A stretch of 64,000 nt of DNA from Chiloscyllium plagiosum (lineage: Eukaryota): positions 60,801,482 to 60,865,481 of the forward strand of contig NC_057713.1 in assembly GCF_004010195.1 (NCBI RefSeq). Direction: 5' to 3'. Below the pieces are notes generated by a model. The model saw only the letters and a list, made by a program, of their open reading frames with translations. It searched no databases and was not told where the DNA came from. Below are positions 4,501 to 61,669 of this stretch, piece after piece. Position 1 is the stretch's first letter. Each line of letters begins with the position of its first letter. The translations under genes were made by a program, and so were the position numbers.

Positions 4501-7500
4501 CAACCCAATCTAGTCCCACCTGCCAGCACCCGGCCCATATCCCTCTAAACCCTTCCTATTCATTTACCCATCCAAATGCCTCTTAAATGTTGCAACTGTA
4601 CCAGCCTCCACCACATCCTCTGGCAGCTCATTCCATACACGTACCACCCTCTGTGTGAAAAAGTTGCCCCTTCGGTCTCTTTTATATCTTTCCCCTCTCA
4701 CCCTAAACCTATGCCATCTAGTTCTGGACTCCCTGACCTCAGGGAAAAGACTTTGTCTACTTACCCTAACCGTGCCCCTCATAATTTTGTAAAGCTCTAT
4801 AAGGTCACCCCCCCAGCCTCCAACGCTCCAGGGAAACAGTCCCAGACTGTTCAGCCTCTCCCTATAGCTCCACTCCTCCAACCCTGGCAACATCCTTGTA
4901 AATCTTTTCTAAACCCTTTCAAGTTTCACATCTCTTGAAGCCAATTTAAATCAAAACTACCAATGGAAAAGAACTAAAACAAGATTGTCTGCTGTCAATT
5001 CCAAGCCTCACTGCTCTTCTATCCATAAACAAAACATCAAATGTCTCACCCTGTTTCTTCACCTCAACAAGAAATGCATAGATACGTTTATAAAAAAACG
5101 GCTGTTGATAACATTTCAAAGAGTGAATGAAATGAGTTTACCAAATTCAGTACAGCGGCAAAAGCCAGATGCTGAAAAGTCACACCAAAACTGAATCATT
5201 AGCCTCTGCCATATAATGAAATAACATGGATTAGAATCCAGGTTCCCAGACTCACATTTGGACTGCAGACAGTGAGTGGAACATGGTAGCACTTTCCCAG
5301 CAGAAAGGGGAAATCTCATTGTTTTATTTTATGCCACTCTCACATTTCCCAATGGCTTCTTGCAGAGCAAGACAGATATGAAACCGGAGAAAAACTGCAG
5401 TGGATCCTTTAATGGTGTTTTAGAAGATATTATACTGGCCCTGGCCATAGTAAAGATGATTAGATACATGACAAAAGGAAGAGTTGGGAAAATAGCAGAG
5501 AAGTACAAGAGAAAAAAAAGTTGACAGTGTGGCCCGCCAGGCACGACAGAAACAATTGCTGGCTTTACCACCACCAAATGAGAGAGATACTGTGAAGGAT
5601 GGGGTCATCTCAGTGGATAATTTTTGAGATTATAGAGACCAAAGAGATTTACTTTGTTGTCACACTATTATATTGGATACAAGGCTGGCTAATAGGACTA
5701 CAGGACAAAGAAGCAGAAGTAGGCCATTCAGCCCATTGAGTCTGTTCAATGAGATTATAGGTGTGTAAATCTTCAAAATTCTCCTACCATTTCCCTGTAA
5801 ACCTTGATTCCATTGTGGTTAGATTTTCAATCCTGGCCTCAAATATACTTAATGATCCAACCTTTACACGCCTTCTTTTTTAATTCGTTGAGGGCATCGC
5901 TGGCCAGGCAGCATTTATTGCCCATCCCTAATTGCCCAGAGGACAGTTAAGAACCAATCACATTGCTATGGGACTGGAGTCACATGTAAACCAGACCAAG
6001 TAAGGATGGCAGTTTCCTTCTCTAAAGAACATTAGTGAACAGGATGGGTTTTCAAAGTTTGGGTGAAGATTTGTAGCTCGGGTGCTCGTTGTTGTGGTTC
6101 TGTTTGCCGAGCTGGAAATTTTTGTTGCAAACGTTTCGTCCCCTGTCTAGGTGACATCCTCAGTGCTTGGGAGCCTCCTGTGAAGCGCTTCTGTGGTGTT
6201 TCCTCCGGCATTTATAGTGGCCTGTCCCTGCCGCTTCCGGTTGTCAGTTTCAGCTGTCCGCTGTAGTGGCCGGTATATTGGGTCCAGGTCGATGTGTTTG
6301 TTGATGGAGTTTGTGGACAGGCCACTATAAATGAAAGGTATAAGTGGTCATGGTGTTTTGTTTGATGTGTTTTCTGAGTCAGCTTGGAGTTTGCCAACAG
6401 GACATAAAATTGGCTTGATGATAGGAGACAGAGGGCCATTATGGAGAACTGTTTTTTGAACTGGAGCCTTGTGACCAGTGATGTTCCATAGGGATTGGTA
6501 CTGGGTCCACTTTTGGTTGCCATTTATATGTGATTTGGATGAGAATATAGAAAGCACAGTAAATTTACAAATGACACTAAAACTTTCCCCTCCTGGTTAC
6601 AGCCCCGCCCTTGTTTTACCAACGTGACAGGGAAGAAGGCTTATCTAAGATTACAAAGAGATCTTAATCATTGGGATAATGGGCAAAGGAGTGGCAGATG
6701 GAGTTCAATTTGGATAAATGTGAGGTATTACATTTTTGTAAAACAAGGGCAGGGCTTATATAATTAGCGGTAGATCCCTGGTAATGTTGTTGTCGAACAG
6801 AGAGACCTAAAGGTTCAGATACATAGTTCTTTGAAAGTTGCATCACAGGTAAACAGAGCGATTAAGAAGGCATTTAGCACACATGCCTTCATTGTTATAT
6901 CTTTTGAGTATAGGAGTTGGGATGTCATGTTGAGATTGTACAGGACACTGGTGAAGCCACTTCTACTGTGTACAGTTCGGTTTGCCCTGCCATATTATTA
7001 ACTTGGAGACTTTTTCCCACTAGAGCATAAGAGATTGAGGGGAGACTTCAGAGGTTTGTAAGGTGAATAGAAAGGGTCTTTTCCATAGGATGAGAGAGTT
7101 CTAGATTTTAGGCGGCATATTTTTAAGGTGGGATGAGAATGTTTTAAAAAAGGACAAGGAGCAACTTTTTTTTTGACAAGACAGTAGTTCACGTGTGAAA
7201 TGAACTACCAGAGGAAGTGGTAAATGCAGGTACAGTTACAACATTTAAACGACATTTGGATGACTACACAAATAGGAAAGGTTTGGAGGGATATGGGCCA
7301 AACGCAGGCAAGTAGGACTAATTTAGTTTGGGAACATGGCTCACGTAGACTAGTTAAACTAAAGGGTCTGTTTCTATGCTGTATGACCATCTATGAACTA
7401 AAGAGCAACCCCTTATTCTGAGATTATGGTCTCTCGTCTTAGATGCTCTAAGAAGAGGAAACAATCTCTTAACAATCAACCCTGTCAAACATAGCACCCC

Positions 7501-10500: not shown

Positions 10501-12801
10501 GCAACAGACTACACAAACCAACAATTAGATTTTTATACTGAAATGTTCTTTCAGAAGGCACGTCTAAAATTATTTCACAGAAGGGACTTACATTCTCCCC
10601 TTAACTGCGTAGGTTTCTTCCAGTGCTCTAGTTTCCTCAAATAGTCCAAAGATTTGGAGCTTAGGTGGATTAGCCATGCTAAGTTACCCGAGACGTGCAG
10701 GCTAGGGGAATTAGCCATGGGAAATGCAGGGTTATAGGGATAATGTAGAAATTAAAAATCATGACACCAGGTTATAGTCTAACAGGTTTATTTGGAAGCA
10801 TGAGCTTTTGGAGGGCTGGTGCTCCAAAAGCGAATGGTTTCAACTAAGCCTGTTGGACTATAACCTGGTTTTGTGATTTTTAACTTTATCCACCCTAGTC
10901 CAACACCGTCTCCTCCACATCATGGATAAGGTAGAGACATGGATCTGGGTGGAATGCTCTGTGAAGGGTCGGTGTGGACTCAATGGGCTAAATGGCCTGC
11001 TTGCACACTGTCAGGATTCTATAAAATAACATACTATCACTTAATCTTTGACAAGGAAGAATAACTTTTACTATTCCTGTGTAGCAACTCTGCCTGGGTT
11101 AACACATGATAGAAACTAATTCAATACGACATGATCAACTTCTGGCAATACCAACCTCCTAAACATATATCAGACGATTGATGAAAAACTACCTTCGCAA
11201 CTTTGACAACTATAATCTACTCAATTCAGACCGGTGTAATTCATGTATTTAGCACCAAGTTCTCAGTTCACTGGTATTTTGATAATTCAATAGACAACTT
11301 AAAATATTAAAATAATTGCTGGCTTTTTGTTACCTCAATGCATTACAATTCCAAAATCTGACAAAAATGGTAAAACAACGGTCAATATCCATAAAGTTAC
11401 TTTGAAGCTGACTCAGAAAACACATCAAACAAAACACCATAACCACTTATACCTTTCATAACATATTGACAAAGAGACTTTGGAAGCCAGTTATCTGACG
11501 AGTTATAAACTTGTTTTGACCCTTTTTGTTTCACTCCTACAACTGAGACAAATGCAAATTTTAAAAACTAACTTTTTCCACTTTTCTGCCATAAACAGAA
11601 ATAATTTTAGGATAATAAAATGAAATAAATCTAAATACACCCATGCGCAATTTGAAAGCCTGAATCTGGTGATGAAACAACCATTGCCTTTAATTGTACT
11701 GCCAACTGTGGCTAATTTTCTGGGGAGTGGCAATCTCACACACATTGTTATTGCACTGCTCCTTGTTTACGCAGCGAAAGAGCTCTGCATTTCTGACAGC
11801 AGTTTCCGATCAGAGCTCAGAAACGTGGAACCGTTCTGCCACTCTGGTTGTACAGAACAGTCCAAGGAAGCCATCCATGTCCACATTTTAAGTGCATCCA
11901 GCAGCCATATTCTGAAAGTTCTATGTCAAACATCACAGGCAACCTCTTTGACAGTAAGCGACAGTGTTTACAGTAGGACAGGGTGTAAGCTCCTACTGGA
12001 GAATGGGAGGGATTGCAAGAGGTATGGGGACATGCATTTGGGGGGATTTTCGAGGACAGTATGGAGTAAGCGGAATAGCGAGACGTTAAATAGGTTTTAA
12101 TATCGTAACTTTTGTTCAACAGCTATTAACGTAATTAAATGGGAACCCTCTGATTAAAACTTATATTTGCGAAAGTTTCCAAGTGGACGTGAATTACTTA
12201 GCAGAATCTTTTTTCCGGGAAATTGGTTGAATCTCCTGCAGGGAATTTCGCAGGGTCTCAACAAGCAATTCTCACCTATGCTTCAGCAACGAGAATAATC
12301 TGGCCTTGGGAAAAATCTAAGTCTACATCTCCGACAACTAATTGAGAGTGTAAACACCTATTTTACAAATATACAACAGCTAAGTCTGTACTTCGCCAGT
12401 GCGCTGCCAACTCGGTTTATTGCCGGAAGACCATAAACGGTATCCCGGTGATGAAGGAACAAATTGGAGGTGGCGCTGGGGGAACATACAAAGAACCAGC
12501 GGTTTTTAACTCCTCCTTGTCCTGGTCAGTTGCTCTAGGGATGCGAGCTCCTCCCAAATGGGGGGGGGGAGAAAAACTTTTGCAAACCTTAAGCGCCTCA
12601 ACCAGCGGCCTGTCTCTACCCACCCAGCCGGCTTTCATGAGTGTTGTGCAGAAGGTCATGGGTCAGGTTGGCGACTATACTGTGTGACTCCATTGCTGCA
12701 CTCCTGCTGTCTTGGGCTGACAGCAGCTGCTCGAGTTGTTGCAGCCGCCGCTCCACCTCGAGCCCCACGCCAGCTCCATGTCTCCGCATTCCAGCAGCCA
12801 T
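1426..12801 (-). CDS. PRKDC: DNA-dependent protein kinase catalytic subunit, 5' part (exons 1-4; gene continues beyond the left edge)
   Basis: Spliced exons 12801-12624, 3034-2958, 2172-2080 and 1500-1426 with GT/AG ends and matching phases give MAAGMRRHGAGVGLEVERRLQQLEQLLSAQD...ALHSSLVFSKDEGLLIFLRKSLSNEE/FRDCREDVLKLITAFVEKIKETVGPYALDIK/DVCLVMYTKEKAAKCKVAALDLLLV. This matches the vertebrate DNA-PKcs N-terminus; head-to-head with MCM4 as in other vertebrates. Confidence 0.95.
2080..2172 (-). CDS. PRKDC: PRKDC exon 3 (93 nt)
   Basis: ccag|TTT CGG GAT...ATC AAG|gtaagg; FRDCREDVLKLITAFVEKIKETVGPYALDIK. Confidence 0.93.
2490..2740 (+). mobile_element. SacSINE/DeuSINE-like SINE (related copies at about 5886-6052, 19215-19350, 51240-51530 and 51820-52160 on the minus strand)
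   Basis: B-box gggtttgaatccc; shared core gtgactcc..cacagcaacgtggttgactcttaactg..gggcaataaatgctggcc found in several copies. Confidence 0.6.
2958..3034 (-). CDS. PRKDC: PRKDC exon 2 (77 nt)
   Basis: tacag|CC CTA CAC AGT...GAA GAG|gtaagt; LHSSLVFSKDEGLLIFLRKSLSNEE. Confidence 0.93.
3677..3845. mobile_element. Tigger/pogo-like MITE
   Basis: TA|caggtt...aacctg|TA with imperfect TIRs of about 20 bp. Confidence 0.6.
4433..4932 (-). mobile_element. CR1 LINE 3' fragment
   Basis: LPGLEEWSYRERLNSLGLF...FFTQRVVRVWNELP; same 3' end as the 24855 copy. Confidence 0.9.
6052..6333 (-). mobile_element. Penelope-like 3' fragment (second family)
   Basis: Minus strand encodes STNSINKHIDLDPIYRPLQR (PLE endonuclease C-terminus-like), followed by a hammerhead motif. 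19-bp inversion at 6209-6227 / 6315-6333. Confidence 0.75.
6128..6166 (-). ncRNA. Hammerhead ribozyme motif of a second Penelope family
   Basis: CTGAGGA-t-GTCaCCT-agac-AGGgGAC-GAAAC-GTT on the minus strand (sense to PRKDC). Confidence 0.6.
6386..7392 (+). mobile_element. CR1 LINE, degenerate
   Basis: Collinear with the 24855-26086 copy. Confidence 0.85.
10590..11022 (+). mobile_element. V-SINE split by a hairpin element
   Basis: V-domain 10590-10749 resumes at 10924 (gggtcggtgtggactcaatgggc). Confidence 0.7.
10750..10923. mobile_element. Hairpin non-autonomous element (probably Penelope-derived) inserted in a V-SINE
   Basis: Inverted arms of about 60 bp (ttaaaaatca..ccaggttatagtctaacagg / cctgttggactataacctgg..tgatttttaa), ~36-nt tail, TSD ggataa(t/g)gtaga at 10738-10749 and 10924-10935. 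Confidence 0.75.
12624..12801 (-). CDS. PRKDC: PRKDC exon 1 (coding part, 178 nt, phase 1 end)
   Basis: ATG at 12801 (MAAG...), donor G|gtgggt; lies in CpG island. Confidence 0.85.
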
Positions 12802-13165
12802 TGTCCCAGTGCGAACCCTGCCGGCACAGCGTTCTAAACCCGCCCTCTCCACCGCCCCGCTGGGGTGGGGGAGTGGTTGGAGACATTGAACATTCATCAA
12901 CAATTCTCAAAATGATTCCATGCAGTTCACACACAATAAACATTTAGTGTTATGCCTGTATATGTGAGGTAAAAACGCTTCCTGCGATACGATTTCTAAA
13001 CTTGCATTCTCAGCTTTTTTTTCCTCTTCCTTATTCTTTCTTCCACCCCCATAATTATTTTGGCGTAGATCCTTCCGAATCGGGCGAAGCGCGCGGATTG
13101 GTGGTCAGCTGACAGCCTTGGCGGGAAAAGTCGTGTGCAGAGTGAAGAGGGAGAGCTTTCAGGTG
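12802..13165. promoter_or_regulatory. Bidirectional PRKDC/MCM4 CpG-island promoter with E2F site, CCAAT box and GC boxes
   Basis: CpG-rich stretch of about 12380-13700. Consensus E2F site TTGGCGGGAAA at 13118-13128, inverted CCAAT (ATTGG) at 13097-13101, GC boxes CCGCCC near 12840 and 12852. Candidate MCM4 non-coding exon 1 donor AG|gtggga at 13162/13163. Confidence 0.8.
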
Positions 13166-14550
13166 GGATTCAGTGTATGAGCAAATAACTCACGTTCTAA
13201 ACTGTTCATAATATTATGAGGCTTTGTTGTGTTTGCCGTGTTGTCTTTGTGCTCGACCGTGAAAATAAATTGAAATTTTAAAATTTCAGCCTGTCGGATA
13301 AGATACGTGCTCAGTGAACCTTATATAGTCTCCTCTCAGGCCAGCCGGTTAGTATTGCATCCGCATGGACGGATTTAACTTAATTTTTTTTAAAACTCCA
13401 ATTTCGCATCGGATGCTTTATTTCAAGCGACATTTTCGATGCAAGAGTAAAGGACAGTATCGCAAGTAGCAAAAACGATATTACTTAAATAATGTTTTAA
13501 AGGTACCTAGAGTTTATTTGAAGTCGTGTTTTTGATCGATTTATTGCGTCCAGAAGATCTTAGTTTCCTTGTTCGCTCCGACCAAACTCTTGAAAGCGAA
13601 AACAGATTGTTTCCATGATCACCAGCGAGCGTTACTTTAGCTATCATCAAACTATCCAGGTATGCAACTAATTATTTTACTAAACAAGCCGAGAAAATAC
13701 GAACTGAAATACCTTATTCAGCCCGTCAAACCCGTTTATACTTTTCAAAATGACCATCACTGATGCTGTCAACTTCATACTTTTCTTCTTTCCCTGTGCC
13801 CCCGATACTTTTAACCTCTAGGAAATCTATTTCTTAAAACTTATTAAGTGACTTGGTCTCCATTGTCTATGGTAGAGCTCTGAATAAAGAAATTTCTCCT
13901 CATATCAGTGCAAAATTCCCCCACATACTACCTGAAACTGACTTTTTGTTCAGAATACCCTGATCTGGGGAAATGTCATTCTTGCATCTGGTCTATTTAG
14001 CCCCATGTGAAATTTGTACCCCTCTCATTTCTTCTGAACTCTAATGAATATGGACCCACCTGACCCCCATACTCTCCTCATACAACATACCTGTCCTGGT
14101 AGGAAATCAAACTGGTGAACCTTAACTGTATTCCCCCAGGCAATTATATTCTTAGGCAAAGAGACTAAAATTGCACAGCTAATCCAACTGGTCTCACTGA
14201 GGCCTTGTACAGCTACAGTTACACTTCCTTGCTCCTGGATGCTCATCATCTTGCAGTAAAACCAACATCATATTTGCCTTTGTAACTGTTTGCTTTACCT
14301 GAATCACCAATGAATTATGATACCAAGATCCCCTTTTATGTTAGCTCTTCCTCACGTATCATTTAAGTAATATTTTCAATTGTTTTTCTGACAAAAGTGG
14401 ACAACTTCACGCTCATCCATGTAATACCACATCTTCCATGCATTTGCCCATTCACTCAACTTGTCTAAATTGCCCTGAAGGCTCTATTCATCGACCTCAG
14501 CACTTGCAATCTCACCTAGTTTTACGTTGTCAGTAAACTAGGCTATATTA

Positions 14551-15126
14551 GTCATAGAGATGTACAGCATGGAAACAGACCGTTCAGTCCAACTTGTCCA
14601 TGCCGACCAGATCTCCTAACTTAATCCAGTCCAATTTGCCAGCAACTTGGCCCATATCCTGCTAAACTTTCCCTACTCATCTTCCCATCCAGGTGACTTT
14701 TAAATGTTGTAATTGTACCAGCCTCCTCCACTTCCTCTGGCAGCTCATTCCCTACACACACCAGTCTTTGCGTGACAAAGTTGCCCCTTTGGTCCTTAAA
14801 CCTTTCCCCCTCATCCTAAACTTATGCCCGAGTTCTGGGCTCCCCCAACCTAGGGAAAAGACCTTCTTATTTTACGCTATCCATACCCCTCATGATTTTA
14901 TAAATCTCTAAAAGGTCATTCCTCAGCCTCTGACGTTTCAGGGAAAACAGCCTCAGACCTTTCAGCCTCTCCCTATAGCTCAAACCCTTCAACCCTGGAA
15001 ACATCACTGTAAATTTTTTCTGAACCCTTTCAAGTTTCACAACATTCTTCTTATACGAGGGAGACTAGAATTGCGCACAATATTCCAAAGGTGGCTTAAC
15101 CAACGTCCTGTATAGTCACAACATGA
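14551..15126 (-). mobile_element. CR1 LINE 3' fragment nested in an older CR1 (about 13700-15540)
   Basis: Begins gtcatagagatgtacagcatggaaacagac, the reverse complement of the CR1 3' end. Confidence 0.85.
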
Positions 15127-16308
15127 TTCTTTCACCCAAATTGTTGATATATGTCTTGCATAGTTAAGGCCCAACATTGATAACTGTAGTATCTTCTTTT
15201 GTCACTGCCTTTCACTCCAAAACCAACCCATTTATTCCTACTGTTTCCTGCATGCTAACCAACTCTAATTCCACTTCAGTATATTACCACAAACCTCATG
15301 TACTTTGATTACATACATCAGCCTTTTATATAGGAATATTGAAATGCACTGCATCCAATTTCTGGATCATTATTTGTGTTGTCTTCTGTGCAAACACAAT
15401 TAAAATAGTTGTTCAATTGATCTGTCATTTCCTTGTTTTTTTTACCCAATTCTGGTGTCATTGACTTAGCTGTCACTGCATTCCACTGAAAATCTTTCTC
15501 CCCCAATAATATCCGCAATTTGTTTGACAGAAGTAGTTCCAAGGTACTCCAACACAAACTGCATGGTGTTTTTTAGTCTGACTGGTGATCTCACATTGAT
15601 TTTCTGTTTCTGCACTCTTTACACAAGGTGTGACTATCTCACTGTATGTGTTATCACTATATCTCAGCTTTTCAGATACCCAAGGTGTTGCTCTCGATCC
15701 AAACTGCAAATTTCCACTAGCTGCAGCTGGATACACATCCTACACATGGTCACCCTGCACATTGGAAGTGTCCCTGATGTTACACATGGCACAGGAGGAA
15801 TATCCCACCTTATCATGACTTGTCCTTAGATTGCTGTCTTTATGCTCGTTTTCTCTGGGTCAAAGAATATTAAATACATGCTCTGGACCTTCCCTTATTC
15901 CTTCTAAACACTCATAATCTAAAGACCAATTTTTACTTTTAAAAATACACAGTAGAAATGCTCACTTGCTCTGCAGCATAAGCAATAAGTAAAATGCTAG
16001 AGTGTTGGCAAGCTATTTTTGGCAAGATTAAATCTTAAATCACTCTCCCTTTCACAAATTCACAGTCTTAGCACTCTTGTGCCGGAGCACTTAATCTCTT
16101 TATTTCTATAGTCGAAGACGAGGGGCAATAATAGAATAAGGGGTTACTCAATTAGAGTACAGAGGAGGATTTTCTTCTTCCAGCAGGTAGTGAATCTGGA
16201 ATTTTGTACTGAAGAGTGCTGTAGAGGTTCAATGAGCTGAATGACTGACCTCTATGCCTCCACTTTATGGTGTTGTTCTTCCACTTCACTGACCATAAAT
16301 AACCTTGC

Positions 16309-16507
16309 TGTAAATGTGTTTCTGGAAAAGCGCAGCAGGTCAGGCAGCATCCAAGGAGCAGGAGAATCGACGTTTCGGGCATGAGCCCTTCTTCAGGAAT
16401 GCCCGAAACGTTGATTCTCCTGCTCCTTGGATGCTGCCTGACCTCCTGTGCTTTTCTAGCAACATATTTTCAGCTCTGATCTCCAGCATCTGCAGTCCTC
16501 ACTTTCT
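16309..16507. mobile_element. Minimal hairpin Penelope-derived element with hammerhead core
   Basis: Inverted arms of about 70 bp (16311-16382 and 16399-16470), 35-nt tail, TSD ccataaataaccttgc at 16293-16308 and 16508-16523. Confidence 0.85.
16368..16398 (-). ncRNA. Minimal hammerhead ribozyme motif
   Basis: CTGAAGA-a-GGGC-tcat-GCCC-GAAAC-GTC on the minus strand. Confidence 0.7.
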
Positions 16508-17264
16508 CCATAAATAACCTTGCACAAGTCGATGAATTTTTGTTTAAGGAATCTCCTGGGAAAAGCCCTCATGTTCCCTTTTTACTAGCTTGAGCTTAGA
16601 TTATTATCATAGTTTAATTTAAATGAGTATTTACGGTGAACCTTTTCTATGTTGTCAACTAGCTTGCATACTGGTGTTAGATCACTGTTCAGTTGCTACA
16701 CGTCCATTCTCAAGCTTCCATATTTCTCAACTCTTCATAATTTCAGCTGTGGAAATGCGTTTAGTGGAGCTACTTTCCAATGTTTCAATGTCCTTGTTTC
16801 TCAAGCAGCTGAAGAGAATGACCACATTAGCTTTTTAACATTACATTCACAACTTCAGATAATGTATACGCTGTACTGAGAGATTTGTACTTCACTTCTG
16901 TACGGCTTCAAGTTATTTAAGTAGCCTACAAATCTCTGTAAGCATAACTGTTCCTCTTTAATAAAATCTGAGGGATGTTAAAAAAAAATCAATAGGCCTG
17001 CTGTTATAGCTTGGTAGTCTTGGAGGACAGAATGGTGAGTATGTTCAAATAACAGCAAGTAACAATGTTTTTCATTTTTCTTCTCTTGGAAGAATTGAGA
17101 AATGGAATGTCTCATGGATGACAAATTCATTATGTTAACATGGAATTTGTGTTAAGAGTGTTCATAAGATGGCATAAGTATTTTGATCATTTCTGTCATA
17201 AACATGTTCATGTTGAATTCAGCAGTAAATGTTTGTGTATTTTTTTCTGTTCTTAGTGATAAAG

Positions 17265-29516
<12,252 letters not shown>

Positions 29517-30283: not shown

Positions 30284-30403
30284 GGAGACAGTGAGGACTG
30301 CAGATCAAAGTCGACGAGTGTGGTGCTGAAAAAGCACAGCCAGTCAGGCAGCATCCAAGGAGCAGGAGAGTCAATGTTTCAAGCGTAAGCTCTTCATCAG
30401 GAA
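30284..30403 (-). mobile_element. Penelope-derived 3' fragment with hammerhead core
   Basis: Minus strand CTGATGAAGAGCTTACGCTTGAAAC, then ctcctgctccttggatgctgcctg and a tail ending ctgcagtcctcactgtctcc. Confidence 0.75.
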
Positions 30404-33558: not shown

Positions 33559-55088
<21,530 letters not shown>

Positions 55089-61330: not shown

Positions 61331-61350
61331 ATGACTGTTGCAGGCTTTAT

Positions 61351-61382
61351 TCCTGATGAAGGGCTTTTGCCCGAAACGTCGA
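61351..61382 (+). ncRNA. Minimal hammerhead ribozyme motif in a Penelope-derived 3' fragment (about 61348-61479)
   Basis: CTGATGA-a-GGGC-tttt-GCCC-GAAAC-GTC. Confidence 0.7.
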
Positions 61383-61669
61383 TTTCGAAGCTCCTTGGAT
61401 GCTGCCTGAACTGCTGTGCTCTTCCAGCACCACTGATCAAGAATCTGGTTTCCAGCATCTGCAGTCATTGTTTTTACCTGGTATCTAGCTCTGCTCAGTA
61501 ATGGTGGTGAAGTCGAGGAACTTGACTAAGTCCTTTGACTTCAAGTGGACAACTGATGGCATCACCATCCTGACTCTGCATTATTTTCCCTGTAGTGATA
61601 TCTGGAGGAAATGATGGCAGCACTCAATCATCCATAGCCAAACCAATGAGTATTGTTATGAATGTGACA

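Follow-up and report, generated by a model that had tools for sequence, protein, structure and literature searches.

Penelope-like elements and their termini

A known feature of Penelope-like elements (PLEs) is a second copy, 5'-truncated and in inverted, head-to-head orientation, beside the 5' end of the first, together with a tail of 30-40 bp that is often present at one end only (PMC8557442). The insertions described by Arkhipova et al. (2013) have inverted pLTRs, a 31-bp tail and target duplications of 8-10 bp; their head-to-head junctions were attributed to self-priming, and deletions at microhomologies are also known for PLEs (PMC3846280). Further sources are Schostak et al. 2008 (PMC2377424) and a 2017 review (PMC6155905). 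Neptune is recognized by a CX2-5CxxC motif between the RT and a C-terminal EN, a description that fits Nematis too (PMC8557442). The way in which inverted repeats and one-sided tails originate in PLEs continues to be treated as an open question (PMC8557442; PMC11167929).

The minimal hammerhead ribozyme, with its extra base after A9, was defined by Cervera and De la Pena (2014), according to whom the PLE versions do not cleave as monomers and cleave little as dimers; opposite-strand motif pairs 100-700 bp apart are described in the same account, as are solo motifs from truncated PLEs (PMC4209133). In Drosophila Penelope the transcription start lies upstream of helix I, separated from it by 46 nt and a 75-nt intron (PMC4209133; PMC2377424). 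Frangieh et al. (2024) reported that the Poseidon protein of Anolis carolinensis cuts and extends both DNA strands in vitro. Two internal RT start sites bound the Poseidon tail, which is the gap between them; reverse transcription needs RNA downstream of the start sites, the ribozyme being dispensable; and templates shortened at the 5' end give shorter products (PMC11167929). Animal non-LTR retrozymes are built of at least two pLTR-derived units joined head to tail, with a complete hammerhead in every unit (Li et al. 2026, bioRxiv 10.64898/2026.07.22.740005).

A hairpin insertion in the MCM4 gene

The window is the whole stretch of shark DNA that was analysed, 64,000 nt long, and all coordinates refer to it. 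The insert lies at 16293-16523 and is composed as follows.

16293-16308, plus strand: left target-site duplication, its last 2 bases common with the end of the tail-less arm
16307-16401, minus strand: tail-less pLTR arm, from the hammerhead front edge (-1/0) to the proximal 3' end (+93)
16396-16369, minus strand: minimal hammerhead core, C3 at 16396 and C17 at 16369
16383-16398: hairpin spacer, unpaired, 16 nt, part of the tail-less arm
16399-16401: 3-base overlap of both arms, the putative joining point of two cDNAs
16399-16509, plus strand: tailed pLTR arm, +18 to +128, without the 5' half of the hammerhead
16475-16509, plus strand: PLE tail, 35 nt, right arm only, positions +94 to +128
16508-16523, plus strand: right target-site duplication, its first 2 bases common with the tail end
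13163-17256, plus strand: putative MCM4 intron 1, placed by splice-like motifs only

The perfect 16-bp duplication reported in the preliminary description stands (16/16 identical between 16293-16308 and 16508-16523, where a rough calculation leads one to expect ~0.001 such repeat pairs per 1.2 kb by chance), with the refinement that the first two and last two bases of the repeat are also the element's own ends, so that the true duplication measures 12-16 bp and the element 199-203 nt, instead of 199 exactly. The inverted arms, previously put at ~70 bp, are 76 nt long (16307-16382 and 16399-16474, 7 mismatches, 91% complementary, with the 16-nt spacer between them), and the minus strand of the insert folds at -131.9 kcal/mol (z -12.8; equalled by 0 of 200 shuffles). 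The 35-nt tail had been called single-copy, which is correct within the insert and incorrect for the window and the genome, where further copies exist. The insert had also been said to have no ORF; it has an open frame of 67 codons, ATG to stop, on the plus strand (16314-16517), in which no sign of coding was found.

The attribution to MCM4 is upheld by an exon match at 26149-26499 (E 1.8e-71). From a donor-like site at 13163 and an acceptor at 17256, ahead of the first ATG at 17265, we infer that the insertion lies in intron 1, as had been proposed. Divergent from MCM4, a gene that we take to be PRKDC starts at ~12800 on the minus strand, presumably in the same head-to-head order as in human, and an exon near 53900 is read, on our assumption, as UBE2V2. 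The region 12620-13163 is a head-to-head promoter region between the PRKDC-like first exon (minus strand) and the MCM4 leader (plus strand), with CCAAT-like and E2F-like motifs as judged against their consensus sequences. In MCM4 pre-mRNA the insert is predicted to fold into a duplex of ~80 bp (-138.6 kcal/mol), a possible substrate for editing or for small-RNA production.

Relatives in the window and family identity

When the insert was compared by BLAST with the 64-kb window, matches were found at 30284-30403, 39800-39887, 47029-47157, 47983-48112, 50029-50120 and 61349-61466, along with an extra scrap of 28 bases at 2413-2440. Those at 47983 and 50029 bound a single insertion of 2.1 kb, and the relatives can be delimited as follows.

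47983-50120, plus strand: long copy of the same family, duplication 47970-47983 / 50120-50133 (13/14 identical)
47983-48587: 605-nt tailed inverted arm of the long copy
48582-48860: broken RT fragment in the sense body of the long copy
48922-49417: N gap in the long copy, into which the RT core falls
49420-49790: CX4CxxC linker and GIY-YIG pieces (IIY...YIG) of the long copy, followed by a tail-less pLTR
46445-47156, plus strand: truncated, older relative, inverted piece on its 5' side, tailed end, 10-bp duplication
39800-39899, plus strand: solo tail-less pLTR of a sister subfamily, starting at position 0, with a 13-bp duplication
61349-61480, plus strand: solo tailed pLTR of a sister subfamily, starting at position 0, 3' end approximate
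30284-30403, minus strand: solo tailed decayed pLTR, starting at +1

The layout of the long copy, a tailed inverted arm followed by a tail-less sense arm, is that of the hairpin, whose arms are 90-92% identical to both of its pLTRs (86/94 positions for the tail-less arm; 100/111 for the tailed arm, in which C17 has become T at 16412). The Penelope-like connection previously suggested is thereby borne out, the long copy being one with RT and GIY-YIG pieces. The solo copy at 39800-39899 is nested in an older LINE-like fragment, and its 13-bp duplication is clean; around 61349-61480 no duplication was found, and around 30284-30403 no clear one.

Ahead of its C-terminal GIY-YIG domain, the long copy has a CX4CxxC linker from 49420 onward, the arrangement that characterizes Neptune, and by this linker criterion it classes as Neptune- or Nematis-type (PMC8557442). 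Both arms of the hairpin are, on sequence grounds, pLTR pieces of a Neptune-type PLE. The nearest named protein, with 85% identity, is one of a bamboo shark. The EN fragment itself scores under the Pfam GIY-YIG cut-off (E 0.19), which a 70%-identical relative clears; the RT fragment at 48582-48860 matches no Pfam family, and its 4 relatives are all short and unnamed. Exact-pattern scans of metagenome contigs, viral contigs and prokaryote genomes gave no match, as expected of a vertebrate repeat. The family may well be catalogued already in Repbase/Dfam; a literature search confined largely to openly available papers found no account of this shark family, nor of 5' ends clustering at a hammerhead.

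A different hammerhead-like motif (minus strand) heads ~200 nt of repeat at 6133-6330, similar to the terminus of a further Penelope/Poseidon family, with related pieces at 5937-6041 and 51271-51375. A second, unrelated palindrome of 138 nt at 10749-10886, 80% self-complementary and followed by a short tail-like stretch, is possibly another fold-back retroelement stub.

A common 5' boundary at the front edge of the hammerhead

Taking the front-edge A of the hammerhead as position 0, we find the 3' end at ~+93 in 3 of the window's 8 arms and at the tail end, +128, in the other 5 (that of the 61-kb copy being approximate); these two ends are common to the hairpin, the 2.1-kb RT/EN copy and the solo copies. 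The 5' ends lie at -1, 0, 0, +1, +18, -451, -476 and beyond -476. Half of the arms (4/8) begin within 1 nt of the hammerhead front edge, a clustering for which P = 0.002 to 0.00004 under uniform nulls and a post hoc choice of window, and the boundary is present in at least 3 diverged subfamilies in the 64-kb stretch. In both of the two-armed copies of the window (2 of 2), it is the tail-less arm that has the longer 5' reach. In each of the four copies that have a duplication (16293, 39800, 46445 and 47983), 1-3 bases are common to the 3' end and the target. The bases at the front edge resemble the initiator consensus. In both long subfamilies a pyrimidine run that closes with AG, resembling a splice acceptor, sits 20-25 nt upstream of the front edge (50001-50010 and 47005-47012).

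In place of a genome-wide copy census, 4 of 24 runs were mapped onto 16110-16709 at 85% likeness: three as contigs (two from organism A and one from its sister species, organism B) and one RNA run (X21, of which ~2 in 100 was sampled). Run X1 is possibly the source of the window itself, and counts of joints and loose ends are lower bounds. The DNA runs gave 114,848, 99,372 and 109,878 matched contigs, nearly all on the insert; the RNA run gave 3,327 mapped reads, on both strands, with 0 on the flanks, so that they bear on the family and not on this locus. Among the loose ends listed, those at the tail end, 16509, number at least 2,092 contigs in X1 and at least 764 RNA reads. At 16399-16400 there are at least 349 contigs in X1 and at least 247 in X5, with at least 181 RNA reads (X21) at 16400; the flanks beyond are mixed (agreement 0.31-0.40), which indicates that many copies stop at the hammerhead front edge. 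The loose ends at 16401 (at least 260 RNA reads) run on into the upstream region of the long copy, their sequence agreeing with 29 of 30 bases at 48113-48142.

Joints between the arms bear on the hairpin centre. Eleven of the 15 joints listed are skips from left arm to right arm, each with its own coordinate pair and 1-4 contigs per run; 4 of these 11 leave the left arm at 16398-16400, and the shorter arm is that on the tail side in 10 of them, a class that the reference layout favours and that was therefore given no weight as support. Two 'opposite strand' joints, also among those listed, were set aside as arm-to-arm mapping effects. Of the 24 pieces listed, 7 span the hairpin centre, differing from the insert in 9-14 letters and aligned with 0, 1, 2, 2, 3, 4 and 6 gaps; mostly or all, these come from other loci, with centres that are near but unequal. 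Depth in the RNA run is 29 at 16401 versus 834 at 16392 and 257 at 16404, on a reading of which, dependent on how read ends are counted, few RNA reads cross this centre; a summed contig depth of ~61,000 in X1 crosses 16401 with the same base. This exact centre may recur elsewhere (29 reads, one gap-free piece, the depth in X1), and, with 3 bases shared by the run-off end and loop II, such recurrence would be likely even in the absence of copying as a unit. The preliminary description had proposed comparing hairpin centres among copies, with random variation to be taken as the sign of independent truncations. The observed centres do vary, though not at random: one arm has a tendency to end at the front edge, as is predicted of a run-off product with no replicating unit at all.

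In some copies the tail is present twice in tandem (joints from 16508/16509 to 16476, a step back of 33-34 nt, the commoner of them in 11, 10 and 4 contigs of the three DNA runs); such tails may stem from a second round of priming at the distal site. An excess of A>G (31 places) and T>C (40 places) in X21 over the DNA runs (11-13 and 20-23) was considered as a trace of RNA editing and rejected: transversions are doubled too, and the run represents another individual and another mix of subfamilies.

The hammerhead core

A hammerhead core is present on the minus strand, as previously described, in a form that had been written out without the extra A before helix II. Helix II has 4 bp, the ACGU is palindromic, and helix I consists only of C-G, U-A, U.U and A-U (strands 16397-16400 and 16365-16368). 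The insert has this one core only; CUGANGA is absent from its plus strand, the direction of MCM4. The motif occurs 6 times in the window versus 1.2 expected, a number reached by 0 of 100 shuffles. The model search that had been proposed as a check yielded no Rfam hammerhead match to the insert up to E 10. A microRNA precursor was likewise considered and rejected: 19 of 19 Rfam matches are below the gathering score (the best, mir-3199, with 54.1 versus 100 bits), and the long hairpin alone accounts for them.

Predicted folding energies set the full hairpin apart from a lone arm. Adopting the hammerhead fold would cost +26.7 kcal/mol in the full hairpin RNA versus +3.1 in the lone arm (3.1-5.6 kcal/mol over four lone-arm contexts), and in the full minus-strand RNA helix II has a predicted pair probability of 0.00, with GAAA paired. 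By these predictions the core is buried in the hairpin and unable to adopt its active fold; the upstream arm, made first, would trap it during transcription. Run X21, a polyA single-cell library unsuited to showing a pile of read ends at the GUC site, has none there. Ribozyme cleavage was rejected as the origin of the 5' boundary, because it would act 32 nt downstream of that point.

Loop II contains an ATG that opens a short Cys-/Leu-rich frame of ~26 codons on the minus strand (16384-16307), ending just within the tail; a similar frame runs downward from 48094 (minus strand), and the first base of the tailed arm is exactly at this ATG. It may be the element's start codon or open an upstream frame. 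The Poseidon ORF begins in stem II (PMC11167929).

Age of the insertion

In the sister species, organism B, both junctions of the insert are present, with 14 of 421 bases (3.3%) different; the left junction is present in the second organism A sample too. None of the 15 joints listed is an empty-site joint, the insertion being present in organisms A and B. The 7 differences among 76 arm positions amount to ~4.6% for each arm if the two were identical at insertion, and at 5 of the 7 most family contigs carry the other arm's base. The insertion predates the A-B split and looks neutrally decayed.

A model for the origin of the hairpin, and its rivals

The hairpin is very probably a dead-on-arrival insertion of a Neptune-type PLE, built at this site. 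The GIY-YIG nuclease would cut both strands 12-16 bp apart, as the length of the duplication suggests, and each DNA end would then prime the RT inside the element's RNA through ~2 paired bases. Priming at a proximal and a distal start site, 35 nt apart, would produce a tail-less and a tailed arm; the tail-less cDNA would run for 94-95 nt to the hammerhead front edge, probably the 5' end of the RNA, and the tailed cDNA would stop after ~111 nt or be trimmed. The two cDNAs would join over 3 shared bases, directly or by way of a fold-back of the first, repair would fill in the target duplication, and the copy would then decay neutrally. The ribozyme would be a passenger, unfoldable in a minus-strand hairpin transcript and missing from the MCM4-sense strand.

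Fold-back of a single molecule was rejected as the whole mechanism, for it cannot yield both the spacer and the tail: the spacer runs on unbroken from the tail-less arm, and a tail-less cDNA folding back would run into flank, not tail, while fold-back of the tailed strand alone would put the spacer in reversed orientation. Priming must therefore have occurred twice, in agreement with the two start sites and the two-strand extension of Poseidon in vitro. Against this, Arkhipova et al. (2013) account for head-to-head junctions by self-priming (PMC3846280). The clustering of 5' ends suggests run-off at an RNA 5' end, with priming in the upstream pLTR. That the front edge is the RNA start is not a general rule, given the position of the start in Drosophila; with that start further upstream, and an intron ending at helix I, the edge could instead be set by RNA processing or by a short master RNA. 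A fuller version of the preferred reading, held tentatively and at somewhat less than even odds, is that the stubs are 'strong-stop' products: one RT dimer on one RNA would prime both cut ends, at two points of the upstream pLTR separated by 35 nt, and the tail-less cDNA would go ahead and run off at the RNA 5' end, while the tailed cDNA would trail and be joined to it. It predicts the longer 5' reach of the tail-less arm and an RNA start at the front edge, and, if true, would make the stub population an in vivo record of how the inverted repeat and one-sided tail of PLEs are formed.

A common 5' boundary would also follow from a short, non-coding, SINE-like master RNA that starts at the front edge, keeps the downstream RT-binding region and is mobilised in trans by the Neptune protein; even so, the hairpin would be built anew at each insertion. 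The 4 of 8 window arms that start within 1 nt of one point and the mixed-flank loose ends at 16399-16400 in X1, X5 and X21 fit such a master as well, and non-autonomous PLE derivatives are known (PMC8557442; Li et al. 2026). We nevertheless consider it unlikely, for a boundary found in at least 3 subfamilies is more simply a property of the mechanism than the outcome of repeated births, the short arms have the same sequence as the long copy, and scanning both strands of the insert against the consensus found no Pol III A or B box; no tRNA was found either. It is very improbable that the hairpin arose after insertion, by loss of the central part from a long inverted copy such as 47983-50120 through palindrome instability and microhomology repair; the 3-base overlap at the centre and the microhomology deletions known for PLEs (PMC3846280) speak for such an event, which would leave unexplained an arm stop shared with three partnerless solo copies.

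The preliminary description had left open whether the insert is an extreme truncation product or a separate ribozyme-bearing unit that replicates. The former is supported, the insert having the layout and 3' ends of the long copy; the latter, in view of the varying junctions among the joints listed, the single core, predicted to be buried, and the lack of a Pol III box, is not. In particular, we give almost no credence to a self-contained hairpin, retrozyme- or MITE-like, that is transcribed, cleaves itself and inserts anew, its centre unchanged. The intactness of the core, the strength of the hairpin fold and the minority of reads and contigs that cross this centre could be cited for it; set against these are a core predicted to be buried (helix II pair probability 0.00), its occurrence only once, when PLE minimal hammerheads are inactive as monomers and weak as dimers (PMC4209133), the variation of hairpin centres among the joints listed, a 5' boundary 32 nt upstream of the cleavage site, and the lack of any tandem array. 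The downstream RNA that the RT would need, by analogy with Poseidon, is missing from the insert. Where a MITE has the same centre and ends in most copies, here the centres differ among the joints listed, and the ends, though shared, leave one arm overhanging by 35 nt; where retrozyme tandem units have at least two complete hammerheads, here there is one core. By the features examined, the hairpin is not a retrozyme, a SINE or a MITE.

This single copy is old and ordinary; its interest is as the footprint of a PLE insertion. In a copy of ~200 bases both ends and the junction fit in one read, and the genome holds very many such copies, so that a census of them could test two-ended priming and RNA run-off cheaply.

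Comparison with known systems

The hairpin resembles EN+ PLE insertions in its head-to-head, unequal pLTR arms with an overlap at the junction, and in its 35-nt tail on one arm, target duplication and 5' truncation (PMC3846280; PMC8557442). It differs from published EN+ PLE insertions in containing no ORF sequence and in its total length of 199-203 nt, from the rotifer examples in its duplication (12-16 versus 8-10 bp; PMC3846280), and from published PLE insertions in that the end of one arm is common to many copies. The core is like the PLE minimal hammerhead in being type I with no helix III loop and a palindromic 15.2-16.2, and in its extra base between 9 and 10.1, its G10.1-C11.1 pair and its short helix I (PMC4209133); helix II has 4 bp here versus 7-8 in the Schistosoma families, and the motif is, by prediction, locked in a 76-bp duplex, unlike the hammerheads of that account (PMC4209133). 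With the non-LTR retrozymes of Li, Clavereau and Pollet (2026), which also occur as dispersed monomers, the hairpin has in common that it is non-coding, pLTR-derived and of hammerhead type I; unlike them, it has a single core, is arranged head to head and is predicted to be fold-incompetent.

The comparison with Poseidon crosses clades, a Neptune-type element known here from its sequence alone being set beside a Poseidon element studied in vitro. At the 3' ends of the four copies with a target duplication there are 1-3 bases of pairing between target and RNA, whereas Poseidon primes without homology (PMC11167929). The likeness that the model supposes lies in two RT starts that define the tail, in the cutting and extension of both strands, in the dispensability of the ribozyme, and in a lack of RNA ends at the cleavage site (PMC11167929).
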